A stretch of DNA of 64,000 nt from a virus. Shown here piece after piece: positions 19,179 through 61,246 of this stretch; the first letter of the stretch is position 1, and each line of letters opens with the position of its first letter. Where the stretch lies: IMG/VR virus record IMGVR_UViG_3300017782_000001, one strand, 5' to 3'. Below the pieces are notes generated by a model. That model saw only the letters and a list, made by a program, of their open reading frames with translations. It searched no databases and was not told the DNA's origin. A program made the translations under genes and the position numbers.

Positions 19179-19567
19179 GAAGTAGATCTATCATGCATAG
19201 CTAATGCAATAATTCCATAATGAACAACTTTAAGAAGGTCTGCTCGGTTTAGACCTTCTTTTTTTCCATATCGCTGAGAGTACTTAAGTACATTACCTAA
19301 AGCGAATCCCATACCATGACCACAGTCTTCAATGATCTGTGTAGCTTGATACTTGCCTTGTGAGTAATGAGCATCGTATGTTCCGTCAATATAAGTCTTA
19401 ATTTCTTTTAGAAGATCACCTTCATTAAAAGCGTATTCAGGATCTGGACCTACGAGATTAATAATATAGTCTTGATCAGTCGCAAACTCTTCAGTTGATG
19501 AATCAAAGTTAAATTTGATTTGACGATATTCGTCTTCCACCGCAGCGCCAGTGTATTTAATTGTCAT
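19175..19567 (-). CDS. DUF3310 family protein
   Basis: HYSQG..QA...I....GFALGNVLKY..RYGKK....DLLK..HY. Confidence 0.75.
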   Translation of the reverse strand: MTIKYTGAAVEDEYRQIKFNFDSSTEEFATDQDYIINLVGPDPEYAFNEGDLLKEIKTYIDGTYDAHYSQGKYQATQIIEDCGHGMGFALGNVLKYSQRYGKKEGLNRADLLKVVHYGIIALAMHDRSTS

Positions 19568-20222
19568 TCGTGTACTCCATAATATTAGGGAAAATTTTAC
19601 TAATTGCTTCTGCGCAAGCTATAGCCAATTCAATGTGTTCTTTTTGAGTTCCATTAGCAGAACGCAAATCAATGTAATGAATCCAGCTTCGCAGAGTTCC
19701 ATTAACATACATGCGAGACATGGTACAACCTTCTGGTAATACCGCTCTTGCTTGTTCTTTTGCAATGCCATTATCAATTGCCCATTTATAAACTTCAAGA
19801 GATTTACTAATAACCTCCTGCTGATGAATATCCCACTGGTCTTGGATATGTAACGGTGCTGCATCAATCGAGTTCTGACGATTCTTTGGATCTTGCAATC
19901 GAGCTCCACGTTTAACAAATAAAAGATCCTGTGTAGGATCAGCATATCGCTGGCTAAACTCTTGAAATGAGAATGAACGGTGACGTAAGAGTTGACGACC
20001 AATATCTCGTGTAGTTTCAATCTCTAGGCAAGCAGACACCATTTCGAAAGGCGACCAATGTTTGTGTTGTGCAAGATAATGTAGCAATTTTGTCGACGTT
20101 TCCTCGTTAATTTGGTTTGAGGGATTCGAGACACGGGCGCAATAAGCGATAAGTTCTTGGACATCGTTACCGACATGTAAATTCTCCGTTGTTTGCGAGT
20201 AGCTAATTAATCTAGCGTTCAT
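19557..20222 (-). CDS. thyX: Flavin-dependent thymidylate synthase
   Basis: HWSPFE and RHRSFSFQEFSQRY signature; start adjusted to MNARL. Confidence 0.95.
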   Translation of the reverse strand: MNARLISYSQTTENLHVGNDVQELIAYCARVSNPSNQINEETSTKLLHYLAQHKHWSPFEMVSACLEIETTRDIGRQLLRHRSFSFQEFSQRYADPTQDLLFVKRGARLQDPKNRQNSIDAAPLHIQDQWDIHQQEVISKSLEVYKWAIDNGIAKEQARAVLPEGCTMSRMYVNGTLRSWIHYIDLRSANGTQKEHIELAIACAEAISKIFPNIMEYTNDN

Positions 20223-21135
20223 AGTGAGACCTTTTATAATATTCATCTAAGTTTTCTATTTTATTGTAATGATCAAGTGCTTTTTCGAAAATTAGCCTTT
20301 GACCTTTTTTATCCGGATGAGGATCAAATAAATCAGGATGATGTTTAGTTTTTGTTGTAACCATTATGTTTTCATGGTATCCTAAAACATTCACATTTTT
20401 TCTAAAGCCATTTTTAATATCATCTTTATAAAACTCGTGAAGTTTATTTGGTGTAAGTCTACGAGGTACATACGAAAACATACCATTAAAGTCATACGTT
20501 GTAGAACATAATATATTTTTATTTATGTATTTAATATTAGATTTTTTTTCTACATATGGTTTTAAGAATTGATTTGAAAATCTTTTGCCAATATAGTTAT
20601 ATCTAAAATATCCATTAAACTCTGGCACTAGTTGCATAATAATTAATTTAATATTTCGTCTATCACAAACATCGTGTAAAGCTAAAATGTAAGATACAGT
20701 TTCATCAATAAAATATGGAATATTGTAATGGTCAATATAAGAATATCCTGCTAAGTCATCTATTTTCAATTCTTCAATATTTTTCCCTACTTCAGCAAGA
20801 TACCTGCCATCAAAATTATCTGGTAATTGATGGTGAGTTGCTACGTTCATAAATTTAAGAGTTTTGCCGGCAGTATTACTGATACTGTCTTCTCTCATAT
20901 ATTTCTTTTTAACAAACTCAAATCTATCCCACCCAGTTAATCCTAAAACAACAGTGTCAATTTCAGGATTTTTCTGTAACTCAGACATAGTAATTCTAAA
21001 AATATACTTATTACCTACACCTTCCATACCTTTATTGATGAGAGGTTTATTTAATTCTTTTGACAAGTGTTCTGGCCAAGGAACATCTCCTTCGTACCTT
21101 TTACACGTAAAACTGCAGCCAACTGCTAACAACAT
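20212..21135 (-). CDS. SGNH/GDSL-like hypothetical protein
   Basis: N-terminal GCSFT, W...LS..L....INKG..GVGN, C-terminal DPHP. Confidence 0.55.
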   Translation of the reverse strand: MLLAVGCSFTCKRYEGDVPWPEHLSKELNKPLINKGMEGVGNKYIFRITMSELQKNPEIDTVVLGLTGWDRFEFVKKKYMREDSISNTAGKTLKFMNVATHHQLPDNFDGRYLAEVGKNIEELKIDDLAGYSYIDHYNIPYFIDETVSYILALHDVCDRRNIKLIIMQLVPEFNGYFRYNYIGKRFSNQFLKPYVEKKSNIKYINKNILCSTTYDFNGMFSYVPRRLTPNKLHEFYKDDIKNGFRKNVNVLGYHENIMVTTKTKHHPDLFDPHPDKKGQRLIFEKALDHYNKIENLDEYYKRSHYER

Positions 21136-21233: not shown

Positions 21234-22603
21234 AGCTTAAACCCTTGAAATTTTTCTGCACTAACACGTTCAGCAGTAGCAGATTTATCAAACACCGGTG
21301 TATCGTCCATTAGTGTTTGCTCACCTTCTTCAACATCATACAATCTCATTTTAGCTCGATCTACTCCAATTACAAACCGCTTGTATTTTGTTGGATCATT
21401 ATATCTATTCTTAAGCTGTTTGACCATGAGTTGACCTTGTTGCTCCAACTCTTCAGTTGAAATAATAGCAAACATTAGATCGGCCGTTGCGGGTAATCCA
21501 AAAGACTCACTTGTATCTTCAAGCCCAACATCCGAGTTACTAAAACCAGAACGAGTCGTTTGCGTTGCAGAGAAGACCGGTACGTTGAACTCGACCGCAA
21601 GGCCACGTAACTCTTCAGCAACTGCTTTAATGTAGGTGTATGAATTGATCGATCCTCCCATGCCTTTCATTCTAGAACTTGAACAAATATTTAGATAATC
21701 AATAAAGATAATATCAGGTTCAAATGCACGCTTTAGCTTAAGCTCATTTAATAGCGCGCGGAAATGGCCAGCATGAGCTGAGCCAGTAGGATATTCTTTA
21801 ACAATTAACTTACCATTTGTTTTAGTTGATAGGTCTGCCACTTTAGTAGAAAACTGATCCTTAGTCATTTTATCTAGCTGATCAATTGGAACGTTAAGTA
21901 AATTAGCATCAATACGTTCAGCAATTCTTTCTTCAGCCATTTCCATCGTAATATAAAGAACATTACGACCTTCTACCAAAGCGCCACTAGCAACATGACA
22001 CATGAATAAAGACTTGCCAACACCAGTACCTGCAAGGGCAATGTTAAGTGTTTTATTTGGTACACCACCTTTTGTAATTTTATTGAGATATTCAAGATCA
22101 AACGGTATGCGATCTTCTTCTTTGTTATAAAATTCCCAACGTTCTTCAGCTTGTTCAACATAGTCGTGACCTACATTTGTATCAAAGGCAACACCAAGTG
22201 CTTTAGTAAGTAAATCTGGTAATGATCCTTTTGTTAATGATTCGTGTTTTCCATCGATGATAGAAATTGATTCCATGATTGCTATATGCAATGCACGATC
22301 TTGACACCATTTTTCTGTTGAATCAATTAGCCATGTTTCATCAACTGTGTCACCATCAAACAAGGTTTGAGCAACATCCATAGCCATGGAATATTGCTCA
22401 CCTTGAATGTCTGACTCAGTAATTTCAACTAAGAAACTTTCTCGTGTTGGAAGCTTATTATACTTTGCAACATACTTTCCAGCTTCTTTGAACAGATTTC
22501 TATACGGCCCCTCAAAATAATCAGGTTTAACGAAAGGCAATACTTTACGCATATACTTTTCATCGGTCAATAGGTTTCGTAATATGGTCTGTTCTATTTT
22601 CAA
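21230..22603 (-). CDS. gp41: Replicative DNA helicase
   Basis: LAGTGVGKSL Walker A, ITMEMAEE, DYLNI, SESFGLPATAD, KNRY. Confidence 0.95.
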   Translation of the reverse strand: MKIEQTILRNLLTDEKYMRKVLPFVKPDYFEGPYRNLFKEAGKYVAKYNKLPTRESFLVEITESDIQGEQYSMAMDVAQTLFDGDTVDETWLIDSTEKWCQDRALHIAIMESISIIDGKHESLTKGSLPDLLTKALGVAFDTNVGHDYVEQAEERWEFYNKEEDRIPFDLEYLNKITKGGVPNKTLNIALAGTGVGKSLFMCHVASGALVEGRNVLYITMEMAEERIAERIDANLLNVPIDQLDKMTKDQFSTKVADLSTKTNGKLIVKEYPTGSAHAGHFRALLNELKLKRAFEPDIIFIDYLNICSSSRMKGMGGSINSYTYIKAVAEELRGLAVEFNVPVFSATQTTRSGFSNSDVGLEDTSESFGLPATADLMFAIISTEELEQQGQLMVKQLKNRYNDPTKYKRFVIGVDRAKMRLYDVEEGEQTLMDDTPVFDKSATAERVSAEKFQGFKL

Positions 22604-23031
22604 TCGAGTAATCCTTTTGCTCGTAAATCTGCACGAATTTTAGTAGCAGAAATGTTATGAATTTCATTGCCAAGATCATGTTCAGTAAAGGTGTAACCAA
22701 CTCCACGTCCATAACTAATATCAACAATGTTTGGTACTACCATTATAACATAATCGTCACCACAAGTAAACCCCTCTTCTCCAAGATTTTTTACAATATT
22801 ATCTTGAACTTGAAGAATATCAAAAGGATTATCATCTTGCCCAGGCACACGAGAATTAGCTTCACGTTTTTCTGGTACTTGCCTAATCATAATACAAACT
22901 TGGCCAGTTATAGCAAAACATCTTTTGAATAATTCTGTATGACCAGCGTGCCAAGGTTGCCATCTACCAAGCATTTGTACTGTAGGATTTAATTTATCAA
23001 ATCTACCATTTGAGTTAACATATTCTGACAT
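22600..23031 (-). CDS. HxGH nucleotidyltransferase (cytidyltransferase-like)
   Basis: GRWQPWHAGH and ISATKIR. Confidence 0.8.
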   Translation of the reverse strand: MSEYVNSNGRFDKLNPTVQMLGRWQPWHAGHTELFKRCFAITGQVCIMIRQVPEKREANSRVPGQDDNPFDILQVQDNIVKNLGEEGFTCGDDYVIMVVPNIVDISYGRGVGYTFTEHDLGNEIHNISATKIRADLRAKGLLD

Positions 23032-23034
23032 ATT

Positions 23035-23535
23035 CTACTCCTTATTTTTAAGAAAGTTAGGAACAAAATCGCTATCACCAAATACTTGTGCTAAGCCACT
23101 ATCGTTGTACTGAGGAATTTCAATATTCTTTGCAAACTCTTCTATTTCTTTATCAGACATATAAGAAGTTACTTCATAATAAGCTCCTGCTTCAGTACCA
23201 TTTGGTTTTTCAAACATTTTATTTGTGTCGTCATACCTACCTTCATCAAGAGTGTTTACCCAGATTAAAACATCAGCATCAAAAATATTACGTGTTTCTA
23301 CTAAGGGGCAAACAAAGTCACATATAACTGTACGTTCTTCTCCGTCTTCAAAGTCTGCAATGTTACGCATTCTTTCTGCTTGGCGCAGTCTTGCTTGAGG
23401 ACTAAAGTCCCAATCGTTAGCCATACCTCTAACTTTATCTGCGTTATACCACGCACATTCGGGTAAAGCTTTTTGCAGTCTTTCGCTTAGCCAAGTTTTA
23501 CCAGCACCCGGCAAGCCCATTACTAGAATTTTCAT
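23035..23535 (-). CDS. cysC: Adenylylsulfate kinase-like P-loop kinase
   Basis: MGLPGAGKT, NADKVR, DFS...RLRQ..R, FVCP....R, FEKP. Confidence 0.75.
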   Translation of the reverse strand: MKILVMGLPGAGKTWLSERLQKALPECAWYNADKVRGMANDWDFSPQARLRQAERMRNIADFEDGEERTVICDFVCPLVETRNIFDADVLIWVNTLDEGRYDDTNKMFEKPNGTEAGAYYEVTSYMSDKEIEEFAKNIEIPQYNDSGLAQVFGDSDFVPNFLKNKE

Positions 23536-24925: not shown

Positions 24926-24954
24926 ATTATACCATAGTTTTGCTGGTATGTACA
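24926..24954 (-). promoter_or_regulatory. Early promoter, near-identical to 41564-41592
   Basis: TGTACA-N17-TATAAT. Confidence 0.8.
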
Positions 24955-24963
24955 CCATTAAAT

Positions 24964-25563
24964 TTATTTTCTAACATACGCATCTATGCCATAAGCCATT
25001 ACAATATTACTATTATGGCGTTCCATATAGTCCACCTGGTCCATTGTAATCTCGCCTTTGTCTAGCTTTGCTTTAATACCTTTATCCAAATATCGATGCC
25101 ACTTCATTGGTACGATATTAATGTTATGAATCATTGCTAGTGGTGTATTTCCTTGATTAAGTCTTGACATTTCTATACAGGTATCTCTATGAAACATGTT
25201 AAATGTTTCTGCCATAATAGGTAACTTATGAGAAGGGTCTTCCCAATAATGATCATGTCTTACATGTGGTATTTCTATTTTAACAAAGCATCCATCTTTA
25301 CCACACCTATATATTTCTTTCATACATTCAATAAATTGTTCGTAATCAAGATGTTCTAAAATATGATAAGCATGAATTTCATCAAAGTAATCATCAGGGA
25401 AATCCCATTGCTGTGAAATGTCCATAACCTTATCAGGGTTACACGTAGAAGTGATGTCTACGTTTATCATTCCTTTGATTTTTTGAGTGCTACACCCTAA
25501 ATTAATTTTAACTAATTCAGGTGGTTTATCATTTAGCCACATTTCATGCCTCCATTCTGCCAT
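24964..25563 (-). CDS. Class I SAM-dependent methyltransferase (Methyltransf_11-like)
   Basis: INLGCS, NVDI, FDEIHAYHILEHL, EIYRCGKDG. Confidence 0.8.
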   Translation of the reverse strand: MAEWRHEMWLNDKPPELVKINLGCSTQKIKGMINVDITSTCNPDKVMDISQQWDFPDDYFDEIHAYHILEHLDYEQFIECMKEIYRCGKDGCFVKIEIPHVRHDHYWEDPSHKLPIMAETFNMFHRDTCIEMSRLNQGNTPLAMIHNINIVPMKWHRYLDKGIKAKLDKGEITMDQVDYMERHNSNIVMAYGIDAYVRK

Positions 25564-25564
25564 A

Positions 25565-26755
25565 CTACATAAAGACTTCTAATGTGTTAGGCTCAGATTC
25601 ATACCAAAAGGTTTGTGATTTATTGTCTTGAATTGCAAAGTTAGATCCAACCAATTCAATATCATCTTCAACAAATCTTTTAACGTTTGCAGCCATGTCA
25701 GATGCTGTTGTAACTGGAACATTCTGACAAATCATATTTAGATTTTTTACTCCGCCAACCAATTGAAAGTCTTTAGGCATTTTCATAATATCTAAACATT
25801 CTCTAATTGACAAATATCTATCAGCATCTGGGTGTGTAAGCATAATAGGCATATGACCTACAAAGGCTCCAATGTAATCCTTTGGGATTTCAGTAGTCTT
25901 ACGCATAATGTTACCACCTGCTTTTAACTTATCTCCCATACGAATACATTTTTGAGAATGACTTTCGTATCCTTCTTTTATCATCCACTTAGACATATCA
26001 TAATAGTTACCACCGTTATCTTCAAAGTAATGAAGAACATTAGTAGTTTTTTCTATTCTTTTAGCAAATTCTATATGATCAATTCCACCTAACATTTCTT
26101 TTAAGATGAATTGATAAAAAGGATTGTCTGAAGGCTTTTCCTTTTGCACAATGATTTTAGACATAGGATCTTCATCATTTCTTGCAGAAGATCTAATTTG
26201 GTCTTCAATCTTCATATGTGGTCTTTTATAAAATTCGAATTTAGGTACAGCCTTTCCTTTCCAAAAGAAAAAGAATGCTCTATCACGAATTTGACTTAAT
26301 CCATGAAGCAATGATTTTGTTTTATACAAACTAAACGTGTATCCATTGTCTTTGGCGAGTTGTCTTAATTGTTTTACAACAGGCTCACCCATTTTAGATG
26401 CAAGTCTTGGTGCATTCTCACCCCACAATACTTTAGGTTGTACATTTTCAAGAACGTATTGAGAAGATTTAATCATCCAGTCGTTATGTTCGTGATCAGA
26501 GCGTGAACTAACACTAAGACTAGACAAACCTGCGCAAGGACAAACAGAATTGACCACGTCCACTTTAGAAGCGGTATGAGATACTTCATCAAGTTTATAG
26601 TAAGGAATACGATTCCCATAATGATTAAGAAGTTGGCTATCATTTGCTTCAAATCCCGAGTATGATAAAACGTATTCGGGTTCATTACCAAACACGTTTT
26701 CCATAGCAAAAGTTTCACCGCCTATGAGCGGAACAATACTTGCATAACTAGTCAT
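25565..26755 (-). CDS. DNA C5-cytosine methyltransferase-like protein with atypical motif I
   Basis: CPCAGLS (IV), ENAP (VI), QIRDR.FF (VIII), RYLSIREC....P.DF (IX), QNVP (X); motif I reads VPLIGG. Confidence 0.75.
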   Translation of the reverse strand: MTSYASIVPLIGGETFAMENVFGNEPEYVLSYSGFEANDSQLLNHYGNRIPYYKLDEVSHTASKVDVVNSVCPCAGLSSLSVSSRSDHEHNDWMIKSSQYVLENVQPKVLWGENAPRLASKMGEPVVKQLRQLAKDNGYTFSLYKTKSLLHGLSQIRDRAFFFFWKGKAVPKFEFYKRPHMKIEDQIRSSARNDEDPMSKIIVQKEKPSDNPFYQFILKEMLGGIDHIEFAKRIEKTTNVLHYFEDNGGNYYDMSKWMIKEGYESHSQKCIRMGDKLKAGGNIMRKTTEIPKDYIGAFVGHMPIMLTHPDADRYLSIRECLDIMKMPKDFQLVGGVKNLNMICQNVPVTTASDMAANVKRFVEDDIELVGSNFAIQDNKSQTFWYESEPNTLEVFM

Positions 26756-27584
26756 AATTTACATTCTGTTCTTTCTCTCTAGAATCCTTTTCATACGTTG
26801 ACCTAATTTTATTATTGGCTGTAATAACGTCTTTAAGGATAGAGAATTCTGGATCAAAGTATGATAAAGCTTTTGTATCTTTAGGGAAACAAGCACCACC
26901 AAAACCGCGCTTCCCATCAAAGCCAGGTACAATAGTGTGGCTATGACCAATCCTAGGATCATTGGCAATAGCAGAAATAATCCGGTTATAATTTCCATGG
27001 CCGTTAACAGTATCGTAAAACTGATTGAACCAGAGGACTTTTGTAGCGAGGAAACTGTTGATTCCATATTTGATAAGGCTTGCTTCAGCAATTGACACAT
27101 GGAAGACAGGACATGGACGGCAAAGCGAACAGGTTTCGAAAAGCTCTTCGATGAATCTACAAGTGCCTGGGTCACCACCGAATACGTGCATTTTAGGATT
27201 AATAAAGTCTTCATTTGCATTTTTTTCAGTAAGGAATTCAGGGTTATAAACAATTCTATCTCTAGCTAAATTTGCTAGCTCCATCATAATATCAGGAGTC
27301 ACTGTAGATTTAACTACAACAAAACCTTTTGTCTTATCTATTAGTTCTTTAACTACCTTTGTAACAATACTTGCATCGATTTTTCCGTCATCTGACATTG
27401 GTGTAGGTACTGCAACAAAAGTAACATCAGGATCAAATTTTGTTAAGTCGTCTATAGTTGTATCAATATTAGGATCTACAATAAACTTCTTTACATCACG
27501 TTGACTAAAGCCATAGTCAACAGCTTTACCTACAAAGCCGTGACCAACAATGCCAATCAAAGGAGTTCTAGTATGATTAAACAT
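26748..27584 (-). CDS. ugd: UDP-glucose 6-dehydrogenase (short form)
   Basis: GHGFVG, VAVPTP, KSTVTP, YNPEFL, GFGGACFPKD; start adjusted to MFNHT. Confidence 0.85.
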   Translation of the reverse strand: MFNHTRTPLIGIVGHGFVGKAVDYGFSQRDVKKFIVDPNIDTTIDDLTKFDPDVTFVAVPTPMSDDGKIDASIVTKVVKELIDKTKGFVVVKSTVTPDIMMELANLARDRIVYNPEFLTEKNANEDFINPKMHVFGGDPGTCRFIEELFETCSLCRPCPVFHVSIAEASLIKYGINSFLATKVLWFNQFYDTVNGHGNYNRIISAIANDPRIGHSHTIVPGFDGKRGFGGACFPKDTKALSYFDPEFSILKDVITANNKIRSTYEKDSREKEQNVNYD

Positions 27585-28546
27585 TAATTGACTCCATAAT
27601 ATTTTTTGTACCATGTAATAAATTGACTTACACCTTCTTTAATAGAAGTAGTAGGTTTATATCCAAGTTTTTGAATTTTAGTTGTATCTGACCAAGTTTC
27701 AGGAGTATCGGCAGGATGCGCTGGTGTAAGATTTCTTTCAGCTTTACGTCCAAGATTTTTTTCAATCTCATCTACAAACTCAACCAATTCTACTTGCTCA
27801 CCATAACCAATACAGAAAACTTCATGGTCAACTTCTTGATTATCATTAAGAATATTTTCAGCTACAATCTTAACGCCTTGTACAATATCATCAACGTAAG
27901 TAAAGTCTCGTTTCATATCACCATAGTTGTATAGATCAATAGGCGTACCTGCTACAATACCATCAGCAAACTTAAACAGTGCCATATCTGGTCGACCATA
28001 AGGACCATAGACAGTAAAGAAGCGAAGACCAGCAGATTTTACAACAGTGCTGTGTGCAAACTGACATTCGTTTACATACTTAGACCAACCATACGGATTG
28101 TTTTGTAGGGCTGGACGATCATCTTCATTCCACGGCAAAGGCTGGCCATGCATGACACATGAGCTTGATGCGTATACAATCGGAACTTTATTTCTTTCAG
28201 CGCCTTCAATAAGACGTTGTGTACCTGAAATATTAGTATCAATATATGGCTGTGGTTCTGCCATTGCATGTCGTGGATTTGCATATGCTGCAAGGTGAAT
28301 CACTAAGTCTACATTTTTTAAGATACTATGAAAATTTACATTTTCAATATTACCAACAATTATATTTTCTGGATCTAATCCATTAGCAATAAGTAAAGCT
28401 TCTCTATCATGCTTAAGCTTTGGATCGTAGTAATTGTTAAAGTTGTCAATACCGCTAACGTGATAACCTGCATCCATTAACTTTTTTGCTGTGTGGTATC
28501 CAATCATTCCGGCAATACCGGTTATAAAAATCTTTTTAGGTTTCAT
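27584..28546 (-). CDS. NAD-dependent epimerase, UDP-glucuronate 4-epimerase-like
   Basis: TGIAGMIG, IDNFNNYYDPKLK, YGWSK, LRFFTVYGPYGRPDMALFKF, RDFTYVDD. Confidence 0.85.
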   Translation of the reverse strand: MKPKKIFITGIAGMIGYHTAKKLMDAGYHVSGIDNFNNYYDPKLKHDREALLIANGLDPENIIVGNIENVNFHSILKNVDLVIHLAAYANPRHAMAEPQPYIDTNISGTQRLIEGAERNKVPIVYASSSCVMHGQPLPWNEDDRPALQNNPYGWSKYVNECQFAHSTVVKSAGLRFFTVYGPYGRPDMALFKFADGIVAGTPIDLYNYGDMKRDFTYVDDIVQGVKIVAENILNDNQEVDHEVFCIGYGEQVELVEFVDEIEKNLGRKAERNLTPAHPADTPETWSDTTKIQKLGYKPTTSIKEGVSQFITWYKKYYGVN

Positions 28547-29772
28547 ACGAAAAACTCCTCTAGTCCCTGTGATTGATTGTCTGGTGTTTTGTCAATTTTA
28601 TTGAATATATCAGGGAATGACACATCCGGTCCATTGTGCGATGCATAATATTCATAAGCCATTTCACGCCATTCGTCACGCATTACATTATCTTTTCTAA
28701 GCTTATTTATGATTTCAATAGTTTCTGTCCAATCGCTACCTACTTCGCCTGCCCATATCGTACCAGTGTTTTTATCTGCAGTAAGCCTATTGCCAGTTTG
28801 CAAGTGTGTACAATGATCACCAAAAGCTTTTCTAAAAATTGGAACTACACCAACAGCAGCAATTTCTAAGTGAGTAAATTCAATAAAGTTTTGAATGTAT
28901 TCAGGTTGAAGAGTTGTCAACTGAAAACCAAAGCCACAGCGTGACATACGTTCTAGCATTTCAGCATGTTTGAATGCACCGAAAACATAAGCTTTTCCAC
29001 CGGGTGATGTTTGAACATCAAAGTCTTCTGCCATTTCGTGGAATTCAAATTTTTCGCGGATATCAACAAACTGAATTGATTTTTCCATTCCTTCTAATGT
29101 ATACAAAGGATCAGGCAAACTTTTCTGCAAGTCGAACATAACATCGAAACCTTTCCAGTATGCAGACCTGCCAATCCATTTCAAGTGATTAGGATCTTGA
29201 TCTTCAATAGGTTTCCAATATTGTTTACGAATGCTTTCTACATTAACACCATTACAAAAGCTATATGAACTAGCTTTAGCACCAAGATTTCTACAGTAAT
29301 CCATAAAAGGACTTTTAGTAGAATATGATAGAATAACGTTTGCAGATTTGATAACGTCATCAAGTAAAGCATTACGCTTGATTGACATCATTTTGTGATC
29401 GTGTTGAATCATAACTTTTTTAGTCGTGATTCCATTAATCAACTTACCAAAGTTTTCAATACAATCATCAGGGTGACCTTTAGAAGGTAGTGAACCAATA
29501 AGTACTACATCAGCATTATTGCAATCTTCAACAATTAATTCAGTGCCGCAGATCGTATCACCACGAGCAGGTTTATTACCCCACTTCCACTGTTTAATAT
29601 TTTCATCTAAATAATGAGATGCGGCACGTGTCCACTTTTTATCACTAGGTGCATAGACTGTATAATCCCACCCCTGTTTTAGTGCCCAGTCTTTTAGTTC
29701 GAGTGTAAATCGAGTTACGCCGCAGCCTTCAATGCCGCGGCCTAAAATATGTACAACTTTCATACTTTTCAC
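28543..29772 (-). CDS. agt: T4 DNA alpha-glucosyltransferase homologue (GT-B)
   Basis: GRGIEGCGVTRF, DKKWTR..SH, QHDH, RN and EFTHLE match recalled T4 AGT motifs (ARGLEGCGVTKF...QHDH). Confidence 0.85.
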   Translation of the reverse strand: MKSMKVVHILGRGIEGCGVTRFTLELKDWALKQGWDYTVYAPSDKKWTRAASHYLDENIKQWKWGNKPARGDTICGTELIVEDCNNADVVLIGSLPSKGHPDDCIENFGKLINGITTKKVMIQHDHKMMSIKRNALLDDVIKSANVILSYSTKSPFMDYCRNLGAKASSYSFCNGVNVESIRKQYWKPIEDQDPNHLKWIGRSAYWKGFDVMFDLQKSLPDPLYTLEGMEKSIQFVDIREKFEFHEMAEDFDVQTSPGGKAYVFGAFKHAEMLERMSRCGFGFQLTTLQPEYIQNFIEFTHLEIAAVGVVPIFRKAFGDHCTHLQTGNRLTADKNTGTIWAGEVGSDWTETIEIINKLRKDNVMRDEWREMAYEYYASHNGPDVSFPDIFNKIDKTPDNQSQGLEEFFV

Positions 29773-29792
29773 CTGTCTTTATTATAATAGTT

Positions 29793-29821
29793 ATTATATC
29801 ATATATATGAGGGTTTGTACA
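29793..29821 (-). promoter_or_regulatory. Early promoter for the agt-epimerase-ugd-MTase unit
   Basis: TGTACA-N17-TATAAT. Confidence 0.75.
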
Positions 29822-29829
29822 CCAAAAAA

Positions 29830-30324
29830 TTAATCTTTTTTCGGTTTAAGCTTAACAACGTTATCGTTAGATGGTCCGTCATCCAAATCAACAAATTCAT
29901 ATACTATACCTGCTTCGTCAAACATTTCAAATGTTAAGCTTGCAGAGTTTTTCCAATCATCTGGAATAACCTGATCAACCATTACTACTCGTTCAATGCC
30001 TACTTGGATAATACCCTTAGCACAATCGCTACAAACAGGTAAACCATATACGTATAGTGTTGAACCAGCAAGAGATACACCATTCCATGATGAATTATAT
30101 ATGACATTCATTTCTGCATGAACTACATATTTGTACTTTGTTGGTCTATCATTATATCTTTCAGGAAAATCTTCAATGTCTCGTGGAAAGCCGTTATATC
30201 CTTGAGATAAAACTTCACCGTTATGACCAACAGCTACTGCACCAATTTTTCTTGAAGGATCTTTAGACCATGAAGCAATATGCTTAGCCAATTCAAGATA
30301 ACGTTTATCCCACTTATCATACAT
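29830..30324 (-). CDS. cd: dCMP deaminase
   Basis: SKDPS..IGAV, GYNG, HAE, PVC..C. Confidence 0.9.
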   Translation of the reverse strand: MYDKWDKRYLELAKHIASWSKDPSRKIGAVAVGHNGEVLSQGYNGFPRDIEDFPERYNDRPTKYKYVVHAEMNVIYNSSWNGVSLAGSTLYVYGLPVCSDCAKGIIQVGIERVVMVDQVIPDDWKNSASLTFEMFDEAGIVYEFVDLDDGPSNDNVVKLKPKKD

Positions 30325-30668
30325 TACGATTTACCACCTGATGTTTTACGTTTAATATCATTGTGATTGAATTCAGCCCAATACAATTCAAAAGCAACGC
30401 CGTCTTCAATTCCAACAAATTGGTGATAGAGACCAGGCTTTACTTTTGTAAAATCGCCAGGATACAAAATAGTTTCATCAACTAATCCTTGATCTGCTTG
30501 CCATACTCTAATCAGCATAGTGCCTGACTCTACATAAAAGCCATTCCACTTAAATTCATGCTTATGTTCTGAACATTGCATTCCTGCTTTATATTCAATT
30601 CGATGGAACTCACATGCACCGTTTGCTTCAACTAATTCTGTTTGACCCCAAACTTTTCCTGCAATCAT
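30324..30668 (-). CDS. Cupin (sugar isomerase-like)
   Basis: KVWG, CSEHKH..K...FYVESG, PGLYHQF. Confidence 0.75.
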   Translation of the reverse strand: MIAGKVWGQTELVEANGACEFHRIEYKAGMQCSEHKHEFKWNGFYVESGTMLIRVWQADQGLVDETILYPGDFTKVKPGLYHQFVGIEDGVAFELYWAEFNHNDIKRKTSGGKS

Positions 30669-31366
30669 GACTTTACCAATTCAAAATGTTTTTCATAAAC
30701 ATGCAAGTTTTGTACTTGCCATGTTATACTACCAACTTTCATATCTTTACGATAGTCTGCGTCAGCAGCACTCATCATGTATTCATAGTTGTATGCTCGA
30801 GTTAATTCTTCTAAAACATACTGCTGCCAAGCATAGTCATTCTTGTATCCGAACACAACATCGTTTGAGCGCATTTGGACCACAGCGTGGATTGAGCCAT
30901 CGCGTAAATAATAAGTGACAGCATTAGTACATATAAAATCATTTTTATCATGTGCATTAAACTCTGACCAAATTGAAGGGCGATTATAAATCATAGAAGC
31001 ACGACGGCTATCCATATTATATAGCAATTCATTTAGAGCATTATCGAATTGACGATAATATGTGTCACTAAAAATTAGTTGACCATAGTTACTATTAATT
31101 TCACCATGCGAGTTTGCTGCGTACTGCCATGCTTTAGGTGGCTCATCACCATAAGGAATGTCATTAATGTTTGTTGAGCAACCAATGTACCAATCGATTT
31201 CTGCATCAATATAGTCTTGATTAGGCGTGCCGAAAATAGCAGGCTCATCTGCAACAAAGCAAGCGCCAAGCATTTCAATAGTTTTTTGACCGGTTCGATC
31301 TACAGTAAACCTTTCACCTTTAAGTGCGTCTATAAAAAACTCACGAATATCACTTACGCTTTGCAT
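30665..31366 (-). CDS. gp42: dCMP hydroxymethylase (thymidylate synthase fold)
   Basis: NSNYG, DFICT, MRSNDVVFGYKNDYAWQ (T4: MRSNDVVFGFRNDYAWQ, with the cytosine-specifying Asp), LHVY. Confidence 0.88.
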   Translation of the reverse strand: MQSVSDIREFFIDALKGERFTVDRTGQKTIEMLGACFVADEPAIFGTPNQDYIDAEIDWYIGCSTNINDIPYGDEPPKAWQYAANSHGEINSNYGQLIFSDTYYRQFDNALNELLYNMDSRRASMIYNRPSIWSEFNAHDKNDFICTNAVTYYLRDGSIHAVVQMRSNDVVFGYKNDYAWQQYVLEELTRAYNYEYMMSAADADYRKDMKVGSITWQVQNLHVYEKHFELVKS

Positions 31367-31766
31367 TACTTACTCTCCTTCTTAGACCACTAGTTGAAAA
31401 TCTGTGGTCACGCTTATTAAAATACAATTCAATATCTCGATGTTTACAAATATCTCTACCTGTAAAATCTTTATCTCGGTATTCTTCACCAAGAATTCTT
31501 ACATGGATAGTTTTCATTTGTAGAATATCTTCTAAGTCAGCTTCGTAGTAATAAGGTATGATTTCATCTACATATCTTACTGCAGCTAGCTGCGTGTGTC
31601 TTTCTACAATTGATTGGATAGGCGTGTTTTTAGTGTCACGATCTGCGGTTGGATCTATTTGCAAGGCGCAAATAAGATAATCACATTTAGACTTTGCTTC
31701 ACGTAGCATTTCAATATGGCCAGCGTGAAGCAAATCAAACGTTGATGCTGTAAGGCCTATCTTCAT
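31350..31766 (-). CDS. tagD: Glycerol-3-phosphate cytidylyltransferase-like
   Basis: STFDLLHAGH, YVDEIIPY, R.HRFSTS. Confidence 0.75.
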   Translation of the reverse strand: MKIGLTASTFDLLHAGHIEMLREAKSKCDYLICALQIDPTADRDTKNTPIQSIVERHTQLAAVRYVDEIIPYYYEADLEDILQMKTIHVRILGEEYRDKDFTGRDICKHRDIELYFNKRDHRFSTSGLRRRVSNAKRK

Positions 31767-32089
31767 TTCTTTGGCCTATTAAACATATCGTTATTAGGAT
31801 CCTGTCCATCCATTTCACCACGCATATATGATACAGCAAAAGACGCATAATTAATAAGATCCATAAACGTATCTTCAAGAGATTCGTGATTAGGTTCTTG
31901 ACCAGACTCAAGTAAAGAAGCAGCACGCATCATTTTACCATGCATGATATCGTAGATAGTATCTACACCTCGACGATAGTGCATAGCTTGCACTACGTTA
32001 GATTTAGCAGACTGATAGTCTTGGCCTTTTTTAATTTGTAATGCAATACATTCTTGCAAAACTTTTACAGACTGGCGCTCATTGCTCAT
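31763..32089 (-). CDS. Nucleotide-modification-associated helical protein (DUF1599-like)
   Basis: KGQDY...K..R...ESLEDTFMDLINYA. Confidence 0.6.
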   Translation of the reverse strand: MSNERQSVKVLQECIALQIKKGQDYQSAKSNVVQAMHYRRGVDTIYDIMHGKMMRAASLLESGQEPNHESLEDTFMDLINYASFAVSYMRGEMDGQDPNNDMFNRPKK

Positions 32090-33460: not shown

Positions 33461-34393
33461 TTAAATATTTCTGTACACGTATTCGATTGCACGATCTGCC
33501 TCCTTATCAAGTGGACGATTTTCATACCAATTACCTGTGTCAGTATCAAACTGTCGACATAGTTGAGATACTTCAGCTGCAGTAATTGGATATTTTTTAG
33601 TTACGGCGTTGCTTGCTGTTGCTACCATAATCTGATACATTTTGTGATACCAACCTGTACCACTAATAGTTCTATACTCATTAGCAAGCTTTTTAGGAAA
33701 GAAGGGACAATCGTGATATGATGTCCAATTGACATTAGTGTTATCCATTTGAGATTTACGATAAGATGTAATCGCTTGTCTCATTTCTTCTGGCATTCTA
33801 TCAAGAAATGAATTGCCAGTTGATTTTATAGGCATTGGATGTTTTCTAATTAATTCGTCCGGGTCAATAGTATTGCCGTTACGATTACTGAATATAAAAT
33901 TATTAGCACCATTATAGTTGCCTGGGATGTAATACATGCGAGACAAGTCTTTAGTCTGCTTATCTCCAAGTTCTCCGAGCTCACTTTGGAGCGCATACCA
34001 GAAGGCTTTGATTCTATCTCGTTCAACACCATATGCAAGTGGGAATACAAGTCTGAATTTCGGTACATCAATAGTAGAGCTAGCAGTAGAATAACACACC
34101 CAACGCCAACTACCAAAAAGTTTGTTAAGAGCATCAAATAAATCTCCTTCAAATTCGAAATCATCAACATCGACTGCACACCACATAGACCATTCAACTA
34201 CATTATCATTTGCACGTGTTGTGTTGGGTTTATATACAGCAGGTGACATTAGTTCTGCGTCTTGTTTTCCTTTCCTAGGCTTTTCAGCAAGTTGATATAA
34301 GACGCGTTCAAACGCATTGAAGTCATGAACATCAACTCGTTTGTCTGTCTTATTATCAAATATACTATTGAAAAGCGTTAGGGATAATGCCAT
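33461..34393 (-). CDS. DNA primase, AEP/primase-polymerase type
   Basis: AVDVDD catalytic DxD, YSTASS...PKFRLVFPL, D.QTKDLSRMYYIP. Confidence 0.8.
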   Translation of the reverse strand: MALSLTLFNSIFDNKTDKRVDVHDFNAFERVLYQLAEKPRKGKQDAELMSPAVYKPNTTRANDNVVEWSMWCAVDVDDFEFEGDLFDALNKLFGSWRWVCYSTASSTIDVPKFRLVFPLAYGVERDRIKAFWYALQSELGELGDKQTKDLSRMYYIPGNYNGANNFIFSNRNGNTIDPDELIRKHPMPIKSTGNSFLDRMPEEMRQAITSYRKSQMDNTNVNWTSYHDCPFFPKKLANEYRTISGTGWYHKMYQIMVATASNAVTKKYPITAAEVSQLCRQFDTDTGNWYENRPLDKEADRAIEYVYRNI

Positions 34394-34793
34394 GGTTTCC
34401 TCTATGTGTTGGAGCTTCCCAGCCTTCAGGTTTAATTAAATCAGGCATTCCTAATGGATTAGGGCGTGATTCTTTTACACCAACTTCTTTATCGAGATTA
34501 GCACGAAGCACTTCATCCCAAGCTCGATATGTATCTACTCCAAAAGCATCTAACGTGCCAAGAGCGACAACTACCAAATCAATAAGACCATCAACTACTT
34601 CTTCAGAATCTTTTTCATCGACAGCTTTTTCTGTTTCTTGTAGTTCTTCCATAAGAAATGAAAGACGAAACTTTAAGAACTTTTTCATTAGTTCTTTGTT
34701 ATCTTTATTTTCGGCTATCCACTTATGGACACCATATTTTTGATGCATAAAATTTATGTCATAAGGTAAGTCGCCTTTGAAAGGTGCACTCAT
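34365..34793 (-). CDS. MazG/PRA-PH-like NTP pyrophosphohydrolase
   Basis: EELQE..EEVVDGLIDL, V..AN..K, DLIKPEGW..P. Confidence 0.85.
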   Translation of the reverse strand: MSAPFKGDLPYDINFMHQKYGVHKWIAENKDNKELMKKFLKFRLSFLMEELQETEKAVDEKDSEEVVDGLIDLVVVALGTLDAFGVDTYRAWDEVLRANLDKEVGVKESRPNPLGMPDLIKPEGWEAPTHRGNHGIIPNAFQ

Positions 34794-49504: not shown

Positions 49505-50551
49505 TTATATCGCAGATTTACGGATTGCTTGGAGATACTGGCCCATTGCGCTAGAAGTTTCAACAGTTTGATCTGCGTCATCTTCTTCATCAACAGTAGT
49601 TTCTGTAACAATCTTTTTATCACCAAAGTATGTTTCTTTGATAGTTGCAACCTTTGTAGTAAATGTTGCCTCATCTTCAAAGTCAATATCTTCAGCCAGT
49701 TTGTGTAGCTTCTCAACTTGAGTTTCTGCAAGACCACGAGCCGCTTCGCGGATAATAGTATTGCGCTTGTAAACTTCAAGCTCTTCAGCCAAAGTGATAG
49801 CGTCAGCAGTTGTTGAGTTAAGTCTTTCTTCCAACTCAGCAATGTTTTCTGCTTGTTCGTCAACTAGGTCAACCTTAGACTCAGGAACTTCAACGTAAGA
49901 CTCAGTGAATAGATCTTTCAAGCTATTCATAAAGTTCTCAGCAATTTCTGTTCTGAGGCCAGCTTGGATAGCAACTCTATTTTCTTCCATCCAATTCTCG
50001 ACCACGTAGTTCAGGTAGCTGTCAACCTTCTCAACCATCTCACCTTTTTGGGTTTCGATTTCTTCATTGAGTTCAGTTGTGTACTGCTCTTCGAGACGAT
50101 TAATCTCTTCAGACAGTTTTGTTTTTACAGCAGCTTCAAAAATTACAGCTGTTTTAGCCTTAAACTCATCAGAGAGAGTGGCTTCAGACTCGATCAGTGC
50201 ATCTAGTTCACCATCAAAATTGACAGCAACATCATTCATCTCTGGTTCAACAGATTCTTTCTGTTCCTTGTCTCCCATATATGATGAGTACATCTTAGAC
50301 ATTTCCTGCTTAGACATACCACTCATTTTTGAGAACATTGCATTGATCATACCAGCTTTTGTTTTTGGCATTGGCTCAGCCGGCGAAGCTTTCCCACCGG
50401 GTTCCTTAGCGGACTTACCAGCGTTTTCTGCTTTTTTGACTGCGTCTACTGCCTGCTTTTCAGCGTTTTTCGGATCGTGCGCTTCGTCCATGATTTCGTT
50501 CTCGTCATCATGGAGTTCTTCAACCTGATCTGTGATTTGATCTTCAGTCAT
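49505..50551 (-). CDS. gp22: Prohead core scaffold
   Basis: LSDEFKAK...IFEAAV, VDSYLNYVVE.W; synteny. Confidence 0.92.
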   Translation of the reverse strand: MTEDQITDQVEELHDDENEIMDEAHDPKNAEKQAVDAVKKAENAGKSAKEPGGKASPAEPMPKTKAGMINAMFSKMSGMSKQEMSKMYSSYMGDKEQKESVEPEMNDVAVNFDGELDALIESEATLSDEFKAKTAVIFEAAVKTKLSEEINRLEEQYTTELNEEIETQKGEMVEKVDSYLNYVVENWMEENRVAIQAGLRTEIAENFMNSLKDLFTESYVEVPESKVDLVDEQAENIAELEERLNSTTADAITLAEELEVYKRNTIIREAARGLAETQVEKLHKLAEDIDFEDEATFTTKVATIKETYFGDKKIVTETTVDEEDDADQTVETSSAMGQYLQAIRKSAI

Positions 50552-50562
50552 ACTTGACTCCT

Positions 50563-51225
50563 TTACAAATTATTTTTGAGCAACGAGAGGAAATTCTTGA
50601 ACTCACGAGTTTGAACCTCATATAGATCCGAACGCGGAGCTTGTTTAATTTCAGTCTCCATTTTTTCAATTTCTCTTGCTTCAACAATGCCGTTATTCCA
50701 GACCCATTCCACACCTTCCATAATTCCATTAACGAAAGCGCCAGGAGCGGATGGATCTTGTACGATGTCAACCGTATTAAGAAGGTAGTCGTCTTTAACT
50801 ACCATCGCGCCATTTTGTTGCATGAGACTACCCATACCACGAGTTGAGACACCTAGTCTTACTTCACCATCGAGCAAACCTTCAACGATTTTCCCCATAG
50901 GAGTAGGCAAGATAGTTGCCTTTCCGACCACACTATTGCCTTCAAAATGAAGGTCAGTAATGAGATGCGAAACTTTATCCAAGTTAACTGTCGGACCTTG
51001 CGGGTGATTTAACTCACCAACAGATCTTTTAGTTTTTACTTGGTCATTGACGTATTTATTAACAGCTTGTTCCATGACAGCCTTTGGATAAATACGACCA
51101 TTGCGATTCTTTGTGTCTGCTTCTGCGAATACGCCTTCAATGACATACTTTTTTGAGCCATCTTCTTTAGCTTCAACGATACATGCGATATCGTGGCTTT
51201 CTTGGTATTCGCTAATCAGTTTCAT
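50563..51225 (-). CDS. gp21: Prohead protease
   Basis: NRNGRIY, GELNHP, GVSTRGMGS, DIVQDPSAP.AFV. Confidence 0.96.
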   Translation of the reverse strand: MKLISEYQESHDIACIVEAKEDGSKKYVIEGVFAEADTKNRNGRIYPKAVMEQAVNKYVNDQVKTKRSVGELNHPQGPTVNLDKVSHLITDLHFEGNSVVGKATILPTPMGKIVEGLLDGEVRLGVSTRGMGSLMQQNGAMVVKDDYLLNTVDIVQDPSAPGAFVNGIMEGVEWVWNNGIVEAREIEKMETEIKQAPRSDLYEVQTREFKNFLSLLKNNL

Positions 51226-51437
51226 TTTGTCATCGCCTTTATGAATTCCATACCAGCTCTCTTAGCTTGATTAAGATTAGAGAACTCATCAAATTTGTCA
51301 CGATCTACATACACAACAAATTTGTTTTTTTCTTTGTGAATCATTAACTCGACTTTTTTAACTTTTTTGTCGAATACATGTTCACCGGGAGGCATGCCTT
51401 TAGACATTTTCTCCCTTAATTCAAGAAACGTCTTCAT
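51222..51437 (-). CDS. Prohead core protein (gp68-like)
   Basis: MKTFLELRE N-terminus; position between gp20 and gp21. Confidence 0.6.
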   Translation of the reverse strand: MKTFLELREKMSKGMPPGEHVFDKKVKKVELMIHKEKNKFVVYVDRDKFDEFSNLNQAKRAGMEFIKAMTK

Positions 51438-51744
51438 CAGACTCTTCGTCTTCGATTACTTCTTCTTCATCACCAGTGATTTCAACTTCTTCATCAGACT
51501 CTTCATCTTCTTCAGACTCATCGTCATCATCGTTTTCATCTTCGTCGCTAGGTTCTTCATCTGCGTCCAAAGGTAAATCAAGTTGTTCTTCATCTTCGTC
51601 TCCGTTAAATACAGTTCCGGCTACTTTGATTTTTTCTTGTTCTAAAGCATCAGCCACTTTGGCCATCATTAGCTCATTGAATGTTGCACCAGATTTTGTA
51701 AAATCTTGGTCTCTTACATCCTGAATAAAAGTTGCTATATCCAT
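51421..51744 (-). CDS. Acidic prohead core protein (gp67-like)
   Basis: Position, D/E-rich tail, late promoter at 51769-51776. Confidence 0.65.
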   Translation of the reverse strand: MDIATFIQDVRDQDFTKSGATFNELMMAKVADALEQEKIKVAGTVFNGDEDEEQLDLPLDADEEPSDEDENDDDDESEEDEESDEEVEITGDEEEVIEDEESDEDVS

Positions 51745-51781
51745 AATCTATCCTCTCTAATATGATATTATTTATATAATT

Positions 51782-52003
51782 TTAGTCTTTAAGAAACAAT
51801 CTTTCTTCTATTTTCAAAATATTCTCTTTCAATTCAATTATTCTTTTCTGAGTTGATTTGTGAAGATTTAACCAATACACATTTCCAGTTATAGCGTATT
51901 GATAATCAGCGTTGTCAACAATTTGAGTGAGAGATTTTATTTCATCTTCATAAGGCGCACGAACTGAAAAATTAAACTTCTTCTTCTTCCTCGTCGCTAT
52001 CAT
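51782..52003 (-). CDS. Hypothetical protein overlapping the portal 3' end
   Basis: Fills a 190-bp gap; nearest in-frame ATG lies inside gp20 (MIATRKKKK...). Confidence 0.4.
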   Translation of the reverse strand: MIATRKKKKFNFSVRAPYEDEIKSLTQIVDNADYQYAITGNVYWLNLHKSTQKRIIELKENILKIEERLFLKD

Positions 52004-60791: not shown

Positions 60792-60835
60792 GATTTTTTC
60801 CTGTACAAAATACGTTATCTATGGTACTATTTATA

Positions 60836-61246
60836 ATGAAAACAATATTCACCAACGGCTGCTTTGACATCTTACACGCTGGCCACGTAAATTATCTTCA
60901 ACAATCTAGAGCTTTAGGCGATAGGTTAATTGTCGGGCTAAATTCTGATAAAAGCCTGTACAATCTAAAGAATAGATGTTATAATATAGATATAGATCGA
61001 AAACAAGTATTAGAAGCTTTATCTTGTGTAGATGAAGTTATTATTTTCGATGAAGAAACTCCTTGGAATTTAATTAAGGAAGTAAAGCCCGATATCATTA
61101 CTAAAGGTGGTGATTATAACCTAGATCAGGTAGTCGGCAAAGAATTAGCAGAAGTACGTATTATTCCAGCCTTACGCGATAGATCTACTTCTCGACTTAT
61201 ACGAAGGATTAAAGATGGCAACTCAGTTATCTGGCCAAGTGAATAA
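60836..61246 (+). CDS. D-glycero-D-manno-heptose 1-phosphate adenylyltransferase (HldE domain II)
   Basis: FTNGCFDILHAGH, VGLNSD, KGGDY, STS. Confidence 0.9.
   Translation: MKTIFTNGCFDILHAGHVNYLQQSRALGDRLIVGLNSDKSLYNLKNRCYNIDIDRKQVLEALSCVDEVIIFDEETPWNLIKEVKPDIITKGGDYNLDQVVGKELAEVRIIPALRDRSTSRLIRRIKDGNSVIWPSE

Follow-up and report, generated by a model that had tools for sequence, protein, structure and literature searches.

The 64,000-nucleotide stretch of viral DNA analysed here (IMG/VR record IMGVR_UViG_3300017782_000001; hereafter the window) carries on its minus strand, between positions 24,964 and 32,089, a block of ten genes which, judged by their sequences, very probably encode a system for glycosylated 5-hydroxymethylcytosine (hmC). 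As to the sugar on hmC, we consider a hexuronate, most simply alpha-galacturonate, to be the best single reading, and we lean towards it with modest confidence on the grounds of gene linkage and the type of epimerase encoded. The donor for the glycosyltransferase of the AGT family (T4 alpha-glucosyltransferase-like) would then be a UDP-hexuronate made by the products of two genes translationally coupled to AGT, and not UDP-glucose from the host. A short dehydrogenase of the Ugd family would oxidise an NDP-hexose at C6, a short-chain dehydrogenase/reductase (SDR) of the UDP-glucuronate 4-epimerase type would then invert C4, and the retaining AGT would attach alpha-galacturonate (or glucuronate) to hmC, which would make the base anionic. 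A fuller scheme, in which the lineage replaces cytosine with alpha-galacturonosyl-hmC, possibly methylated, with a two-domain UDP-glucose dehydrogenase (UGDH) making the donor and AGT having exchanged UDP-glucose for a UDP-uronic acid on at least two occasions, is put forward tentatively, as one that we would sooner doubt than accept in full.

The window is part of the genome of a T4-like myophage, whose DNA polymerase shares 58% identity with its counterpart in Phage C48C1 (Kyanoviridae) and approximately 48% with those of cyanomyophages. The lineage is an abundant marine T4-like (Kyanoviridae-like) myophage, and its host is probably a marine alphaproteobacterium. A megablast comparison of the 7.1-kb region with 50,697 phage records returned zero matches, and a cluster of this make-up was not found described in the literature. 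Gene calls were taken from a list of open reading frames (ORFs) checked by Pfam, PHROG, NCBIfam and PDB searches. All ten genes lie where a first-pass annotation of this DNA had placed them, and Pfam, PHROG or PDB matches bore out each of its calls. In the order of transcription they encode a DUF1599 protein, a small cytidylyltransferase-family enzyme (hereafter cytidylyltransferase), a thymidylate synthase (TS) homologue, a cupin, a dCMP deaminase, AGT, the SDR, the Ugd-like protein, a C5-cytosine-methyltransferase-like protein (hereafter C5-MTase-like) and a small methyltransferase.

Linkage of the sugar genes to the AGT gene

The AGT gene (28543..29772, minus strand) encodes a GT-B glycosyltransferase that matched PF11440 (1e-51), PHROG 2888 (1.5e-74) and PDB 1Y6F (E 1e-63). 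Its homology to the a-gt proteins of T2 and T4 runs over the full length at 33% identity, with PF11440 covering model positions 1-353 of 355 and the 1Y6F match spanning residues 1-393. The catalytic and donor motifs are present (DH of HDH, GR...WKG and E....E), and 37 alignment columns, including D125, H126, G201, R202, K207, E298 and E303, are invariant from T2 AGT through all relatives. The protein is best described as an AGT-family enzyme predicted to glycosylate hmC in DNA after replication, and its gene context suggests a donor other than UDP-glucose for hmC duplex DNA. Translation more likely starts at the ATG at 29763, which lies behind an AGGTGA ribosome-binding site, than at the GTG at 29772. 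Directly upstream of AGT, many other loci (for instance L011:9606-9974) encode a small protein (120-150 aa) that weakly resembles the uracil-DNA-glycosylase superfamily (PF03167, 1.6e-4); this gene is absent from the window.

AGT is followed on the same strand by the genes for the SDR (27584..28546), the Ugd-like protein (26748..27614), the C5-MTase-like protein (25565..26755) and the small methyltransferase (24964..25563). Successive overlaps of 4 bases (AGT/SDR), 31 bases (SDR/Ugd-like) and 8 bases (Ugd-like/C5-MTase-like), which imply translational coupling, are followed by a 1-base gap to the small methyltransferase gene. This set had been annotated as a separately promoted, overlapping unit, of which the overlaps were confirmed and the promoter is a consensus match. 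The 57-base gap upstream of AGT holds a promoter-like TGTACA-N17-TATAAT site with an extended TG (29793..29821, minus strand), and the same hexamers occur upstream of uvsX (24926-24954). Since the 52 promoter-like sites found in the region against 46 ± 6 expected amount to no enrichment, it is the position of the site that argues for an AGT promoter.

To place this arrangement among relatives, IMG/VR was queried with AGT, the epimerase and the short Ugd, and the neighbouring genes were tabulated by tblastn and ORF clustering. Counted over 69 unique full-length AGT proteins, the epimerase gene was the very next one after AGT in 58, and the full order AGT-epimerase-Ugd-C5-MTase was seen in 40. 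The epimerase scan matched 159 stretches, of which the best 80, with 62-99% identity to the query, were retained; in all 80 the epimerase followed an AGT. In a quick IQ-TREE run, the epimerase-linked AGTs split into two deep clades, with 33% identity between them and with epimerase-less sisters in each, and the AGT of T2 grouped with the clade of the window. The AGT-epimerase block was also found intact next to gp45/44 (L099, L100), after gp41-ThyX (L159, L163) and in one other context (L164). On contigs with AGT, the epimerase and the short Ugd were either both present or both absent wherever this could be assessed, a non-adjacent Ugd being found elsewhere on the same contig (L142; G003).

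The linkage extends to other types of glycosyltransferase. More distant epimerases, 48-55% identical, directly follow a TET-associated glycosyltransferase (TAGT; PF20691, 8e-49) in L047 and a 374-aa protein without a Pfam match in L052 and L053; the AlphaFold2 model of the latter protein (pLDDT 86) best matches T4 beta-glucosyltransferase (BGT). TAGT also adjoins a run of genes for a cupin, a phosphomannomutase (PMM), a cytidylyltransferase and the short Ugd in L066, L067 and L071. The first-pass annotation had proposed to ask whether ugd and the epimerase gene track agt, and the adjacency counts, the two clades and the blocks relocated to at least three genomic positions favour a functional link of the sugar pair with AGT.

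Sugar-nucleotide enzymes

The second line of evidence comes from the epimerase itself. The three best solved relatives of this extended SDR, 5U4Q (1e-69), BcUGAepi from Bacillus cereus (6ZL6, 3e-42) and MoeE5 (6KV9, 1e-31), are all UDP-glucuronate 4-epimerases. Aligned to 6ZL6, it keeps the GxxGxxG motif, the S/T-Y-K triad, S127, T178, Y149, K153 and R185, the last of these within GRPDMA, and has a Ser at the position of T126; the signature FFTVYGPxGRPD was present in 68/68 homologues. In BcUGAepi, Arg185 grips the carboxylate of UDP-galacturonate (PMC12338863). The NCBIfam scores of the epimerase were below every equivalog cut-off. We assign the SDR to the UDP-glucuronate 4-epimerase clade, and interconversion of UDP-glucuronate and UDP-galacturonate is predicted for it; the earlier description as UDP-glucuronate epimerase-like thus agrees with the PDB matches and with the retained Arg185. 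Ugd together with a UDP-glucuronate 4-epimerase is a standard two-step route to UDP-galacturonate.

The Ugd-like protein is a short two-domain member of the UDP-glucose/GDP-mannose-dehydrogenase family, with 288 aa and matches to PF03721 and PF00984 only. In alignments to the UGDH structures 4A7P and 3PHL it keeps the Rossmann motif GHGFVG, NPEFL, the K/N pair and GFGGACFPKD, and it ends 46 residues beyond the catalytic Cys. TIGR03026 covers it at positions 76-298 of 413 with a score of 131.8, below the cut-off of 189.8. Short homologues are numerous: we counted 84 unique ones of 260-333 aa, with the Cys motif in 80/84, and several clusters of this form, mostly viral, are found in the ESM Atlas. 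The short form is therefore a family trait and not a truncation artefact, and a UGDH family that has the active site without the UDP-binding domain is an enzymological question in itself. Matches in HTVC008M and Bellamy were rejected as members of this family, as they are full-length enzymes in an unrelated cluster (carbamoyltransferase, NadE, methyltransferase and glycosyltransferase).

Two further genes of the block are candidates for sugar metabolism. A small nucleotidyltransferase of the cytidylyltransferase family (TagD/RfaE-II like) is encoded at 31350..31766 (minus strand; PF01467 6e-11, TIGR01518 6e-17, TIGR02199 1e-16). In relatives it co-occurs with the short Ugd in the order PMM-cytidylyltransferase-ugd, and it is absent from AGT loci without sugar genes. 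The cupin gene (30324..30668, minus strand; PF07883 3e-06, PHROG 7851) adjoins the same three genes in relatives, and its product may serve the sugar cassette as a sugar isomerase.

Elsewhere in the window, the interval 60821-62481 (plus strand) holds another cytidylyltransferase-like gene (PF01467, 1e-17), followed by one for a protein with the carbamoyltransferase N-terminal domain only (PF02543, 3e-18). Carbamoyltransferases acting on hmC are known (PMC8670742); the PF02543 gene is 30 kb from the hmC module and without the carbamoyltransferase C-terminal domain. In addition, two adjacent ORFs at 22600-23535 (minus strand) correspond to the N-terminal (166 aa) and C-terminal (143 aa) halves of PHROG 10255 'kinase', the former with AAA_18 and APS_kinase matches and the latter with a weak cytidylyltransferase-like match. 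Many relatives have this pair between uvsX and gp41, and it may be a split or two-part kinase/nucleotidyltransferase.

Alternative sugars and donors

Several observations weigh against a hexuronate. The reading was derived from sequence and gene context. Neither the Pfam and NCBIfam scan nor the structure alignment found the C-terminal UDP-binding domain PF03720 in the Ugd-like protein, and in every solved UGDH this region binds the UDP moiety. The earlier statement that this Ugd makes UDP-glucuronate is consequently not established. Moreover, the AGTs of subclade I-B (L014-L020, L025, L032), which are 63-75% identical to the AGT of the window, and that of L034 (43% identical) are encoded directly before the C5-MTase gene in loci without the epimerase, Ugd, cytidylyltransferase and cupin, and the HDH, GR..WKG and E..E segments of the I-B proteins are identical to those of the window. 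In one 55-kb contig of the I-B type that was searched whole, Ugd was found nowhere. Many AGT-less relatives have the short Ugd beside uvsX with PMM, cytidylyltransferase and cupin genes, some also with KdsA and KdsB, and with no glycosyltransferase in view. This company fits a general sugar-nucleotide cassette, in which a nucleotide handle other than UDP is possible. In L048, the epimerase and Ugd are present with no glycosyltransferase. The missing UDP-binding domain and the sister AGTs without sugar genes thus weaken the case for a hexuronate.

The same holds for the AGT alignments, in which we looked for donor-switch or specificity-determining positions, first with 32 and then with 70 sequences, and found none that was convincing: position 162 falls in a loop that could not be aligned, and at position 317 (F/Y) both groups contain exceptions. 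No position separates the epimerase-linked from the epimerase-less AGTs, and all positions shared with T2, a UDP-glucose enzyme, are kept. By analogy with other retaining GT-B enzymes, these T2-shared residues presumably include the contacts to the donor nucleotide; published donor-pocket residues of T4 AGT were not found in the literature searched. Subclades I-A and I-B are fixed differently at 25 positions, among them 38, 60, 62, 177, 182, 269, 287, 322, 335, 370 and 371 (counted from the GTG start), and AGTs with and without the epimerase and short Ugd, at 63-75% identity, offer a natural comparison for determinants of donor specificity.

Phage C48C1 also seemed to belong on this side, with an epimerase-Ugd pair that lies 13 kb from a TET/JBP - BGT-like - Glf cluster. 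We had taken it as a refutation, in that it has the epimerase and the short Ugd with no AGT or hydroxymethylase, and withdrew this because genes for TET/JBP, a BGT-like protein and UDP-galactopyranose mutase stand in a row there. C48C1 is a DNA-glycosylating phage as well, and neither supports nor refutes the link. The run itself (L090:3584-7031, record 49583-53030), annotated as hypothetical, consists of a TET/JBP oxygenase (PF12851, 3e-17), a BGT-like homologue and a UDP-galactopyranose mutase (PF03275, 6e-52), and is an apparent DNA hypermodification cluster. Since the only DNA methyltransferase near the C48C1 polymerase is of the Dam type, its TET/JBP oxygenase may act on thymine.

These observations raise the possibility of plain T4-style alpha-glucosyl-hmC made from host UDP-glucose, with the sugar cassette serving another target, such as the host envelope, virion proteins or a second glycosylation step. 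The sugar genes would then adjoin AGT only because the interval between the polymerase gene and uvsX is an insertion hot spot, and this region is indeed known to be plastic (PMC6024577). Such an explanation would account for Type II loci, in which the AGT is 63-75% identical with the same catalytic motifs and sugar genes are absent, for the lack of a donor-switch signature with every T2-conserved residue kept, and for the short Ugd beside uvsX in many loci with no AGT or hydroxymethylase in view, some of them with KdsA/KdsB. It is opposed by an AGT-epimerase adjacency that outlasts relocation to at least three other positions and recurs in two clades at 33% identity, by epimerases directly after TAGT-type and BGT-like glycosyltransferases, and by the translational coupling implied by the gene overlaps. 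In addition, a Pfam scan of 50 window ORFs turned up no glycosyltransferase besides AGT. Altogether, we regard plain glucosylation as unlikely.

KdsA-like (DAHP_synth_1, 8e-54) and KdsB-like (CTP_transf_3, 6e-26) genes were observed in the polymerase-uvsX interval of other loci (L059:7595-8380, L061:8508-9251, L110:798-1988 and relatives), where they adjoin the genes for the cupin, cytidylyltransferase and short Ugd, with a phosphoenolpyruvate carboxykinase gene (1e-93) in some loci. They point to CMP-Kdo synthesis in these phages.

Another possibility is that hmC carries a non-glucose sugar other than a simple UDP-derived hexuronate. Either the epimerase would act on another UDP-sugar, leading to, for example, galactose, a pentose or an N-acetyl-hexosaminuronate, or the short dehydrogenase would act on an ADP- or CDP-sugar supplied by the cytidylyltransferase, cupin and PMM, with a different nucleotide handle. 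The absence of PF03720 from the short Ugd, the PMM and RfaE-II/TagD-like nucleotidyltransferase genes that consistently precede it in relatives, and epimerase scores under every NCBIfam equivalog cut-off are all compatible with this. There is also a precedent, as a cytidylyltransferase, a HAD enzyme and a glycosyltransferase gave heptosyl-hmC in a reconstitution (bioRxiv 10.1101/2023.12.21.572611). On the other hand, the epimerase keeps the contacts to the carboxylate of UDP-glucuronate and UDP-galacturonate, including Arg185, and resembles most closely three solved UDP-glucuronate 4-epimerases; its pairing with Ugd corresponds to a standard UDP-galacturonate route; and the conserved T2-shared AGT residues would by homology include those that hold the donor nucleotide. 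We consider this possibility quite improbable.

The claim of the first-pass annotation that AGT installs glucuronate or galacturonate is thus supported by the epimerase linkage and challenged by the sister AGTs, which have the same motifs without sugar genes, and by the lack of donor-switch residues. The identity of the sugar, a possible methylation of it and a possible evasion of GmrSD are inferences from the genes described.

Base synthesis, methyltransferases and known systems

The TS homologue (30665..31366, minus strand) had been annotated as a gp42-like dCMP hydroxymethylase, and its best PDB match is the T4 enzyme (1B5E, also 1B49; E 3.6e-68). Phage TS homologues may alternatively make 5-hydroxy-dCMP, and the diagnostic features are N177D for cytosine, replacement of L143 by an acidic residue and, in the hydroxylase type, D169N (PMC13326640, 2026). 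In the window the catalytic Cys lies in DFICTN, L143 is replaced by D, D169 is kept (SND) and N177 is replaced by D (KNDYAW); DFICTN and KNDYAW align with C148, D145 and D179 of T4. The gp42-type signature was present in 47-48 of 49 homologues from related loci, and RSND in 48 of 49. The retained D169, together with the other diagnostics, identifies the homologue as the hmC type, in line with the annotation. A 5-hydroxy-dCMP synthase of the RB69 gp48 type was ruled out, as there is no D169N and the Asp is retained.

The gp42-type enzyme would convert dCMP to 5-hydroxymethyl-dCMP, a MazG-like pyrophosphatase would exclude dCTP from the pool, and the dCMP deaminase (29830..30324, minus strand; PF00383 9e-19, PHROG 174 3e-44) and ThyX would supply dTMP synthesis. 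ThyX, a flavin-dependent thymidylate synthase, is present as annotated (19557..20246, minus strand; PF02511 (Thy1) 1.1e-42). So is the MazG-like gene by the polymerase gene (34365..34793, minus strand), for an all-alpha NTP pyrophosphatase of the MazG-like/PRA-PH type (PF01503 2.4e-11, PHROG 671/12019). The latter gene occurs between the polymerase and primase genes only in relatives with the hydroxymethylase in that interval, and it relocates with the hydroxymethylase module in L052, L053, L058, L159 and L163. PF01503 also belongs to the gene network of modified-cytosine contigs (PMC8670742). The protein is a likely candidate dCTPase, an analogue of T4 gp56 that would keep dCTP out of the pool; the earlier suggestion that it replaces dCTPase is in this way supported, not shown. 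The remaining gene of the block (31763..32089, minus strand) encodes a DUF1599/Nmad1 (nucleotide modification associated domain 1) protein (PF07659 4e-07; PHROG 18404). It precedes the hydroxymethylase gene in nearly all relatives, and PHROG 18404 also matches the MazG-like protein.

The TS homologue of L048 (L048:6871-7653) keeps Leu at L143 and has Asp at N177, and so resembles the dCMP methylase type that makes 5-methyl-dCMP. Its neighbours are PMM, cytidylyltransferase, deaminase, short Ugd and epimerase genes, with no glycosyltransferase in view.

The C5-MTase-like protein (PF00145, 2e-15) has the motifs PLIGGE (I), CPCAGLS (IV), ENA (VI), QIRDR (VIII) and QNVP (X), and all five were present in 64/64 homologues. 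Its motif I is atypical, with no Phe and with Pro-Leu-Ile before GG, and its TIGR00675 score of 33.8 is below the cut-off of 100.65. In each locus of the lineage that has AGT, the gene comes after it, with or without sugar genes, and the family has 2024 database relatives, marine and TARA. The small protein is a class-I S-adenosylmethionine (SAM) methyltransferase (PF13489/PF08241; PHROG 6636, 2e-14), and its only PDB relative is 3DLI (2e-06). It was present only in L003-L008, L037-L039, L097 and L145, the closest relatives, and other small SAM methyltransferases adjoin AGT in other loci. As co-transcribed accessory functions, the C5-MTase-like enzyme, in a genome whose cytosines should carry a C5 substituent beforehand, may methylate residual unmodified cytosine and the small enzyme may methylate the sugar, a step to which the small SAM methyltransferases by AGT give a faint hint. 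We also considered the two proteins as a CmoX/CmoA pair. A CmoX C5-carboxymethyltransferase is recognised by an SPPC motif and by Arg350 in place of the motif X Asn (PMC12783734). The pair was rejected, as the protein of the window has CPC and not SPPC, with Asn and not Arg in motif X, and the small methyltransferase has no PDB relative but 3DLI; the match of the C5-MTase-like protein to 8YF3 was only at E 0.008.

The system resembles the hmC pathway of T4 and T2 in its gp42-type hydroxymethylase with the same diagnostic residues, its dCMP deaminase and its full-length AGT homologue. As with T4 genes 42 and beta-gt, the hydroxymethylase and glycosyltransferase genes lie between the polymerase gene (43) and uvsX. 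Unlike in T4 and T2, the AGT, at 33% identity, is joined in one operon to the epimerase-type SDR, the short Ugd, the C5-MTase-like gene and the small methyltransferase gene; the candidate dCTPase is of the MazG/PRA-PH type instead of gp56, dTMP comes from ThyX, and the host is marine.

Hexuronosyl-5hmC as such, which the first-pass annotation had put forward as a candidate new hypermodification, is not a new class of modification, for it was already made from metavirome pairs of a glycosyltransferase and an epimerase. In that study, HexA-5hmC was obtained in E. coli with the contig 57 pair of a GT-A glycosyltransferase and an epimerase and with GT91 alone, metavirome glycosyltransferases were often strictly dependent on the adjacent epimerase, and the hexosyl- and hexuronosyl-hmdC products were reported at 419 and 433 amu, respectively (bioRxiv 10.1101/2023.12.21.572611, 2023). 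The subclass II pathways described there share with the window a DNA glycosyltransferase with an adjacent epimerase. They are post-replicative (C5 methyltransferase and TET), GT57 has a GT-A, JGT-like fold, and no phage Ugd was needed in E. coli, whereas the window has a pre-replicative gp42 route, an AGT-family GT-B enzyme and its own short Ugd.

Phages RB69, DLP3 and RL38JI carry glycosylated 5-hydroxycytosine and have phage-encoded NDP-sugar synthesis by their DNA glycosyltransferases (PMC13326640). There, too, a TS homologue, DNA glycosyltransferases and sugar-nucleotide enzymes are clustered between the polymerase gene and uvsX or rIIA. Their TS homologues have D169N and make 5-hydroxy-dCMP, and their sugars are arabinofuranose or galactofuranose, whereas the window keeps D169 and has sugar genes suggestive of a uronic acid. 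Bacillus phage SP-15 carries phosphoglucuronate on dihydroxypentyluracil and encodes a Ugd (PMC5977210). A uronic acid on the DNA and a homologue of UDP-glucose dehydrogenase encoded by the phage itself are shared with the system proposed here; SP-15 differs in its thymine-derived base, its phosphodiester linkage and its unrelated transferases, and it lacks AGT and the epimerase.

New here are a GT-B transferase of the AGT family, a T4-like phage with the gp42 (pre-replicative) route, a short UGDH encoded by the phage and a strictly linked C5-MTase-like gene. If the hexuronate reading is true, a sugar acid on every cytosine would be predicted here for the first time in a T4-like, pre-replicative hmC system. 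It would extend the glycodiversity of phage DNA to the AGT family, each modified base would gain a negative charge, and hexuronosyl-hmC, which so far comes only from heterologous reconstitution, would acquire a natural setting. The lineage is widespread in ocean metagenomes, and the C5-MTase family alone has approximately 2000 relatives, TARA samples included.

Lastly, genes for a radical-SAM protein, a QueC-like protein and GTP cyclohydrolase I were seen in or near the module of several relatives (L105:5157-6017, L110:3578-4261, L059:15511-16203), and hint at a further modification, of the 7-deazaguanine type, in the lineage.

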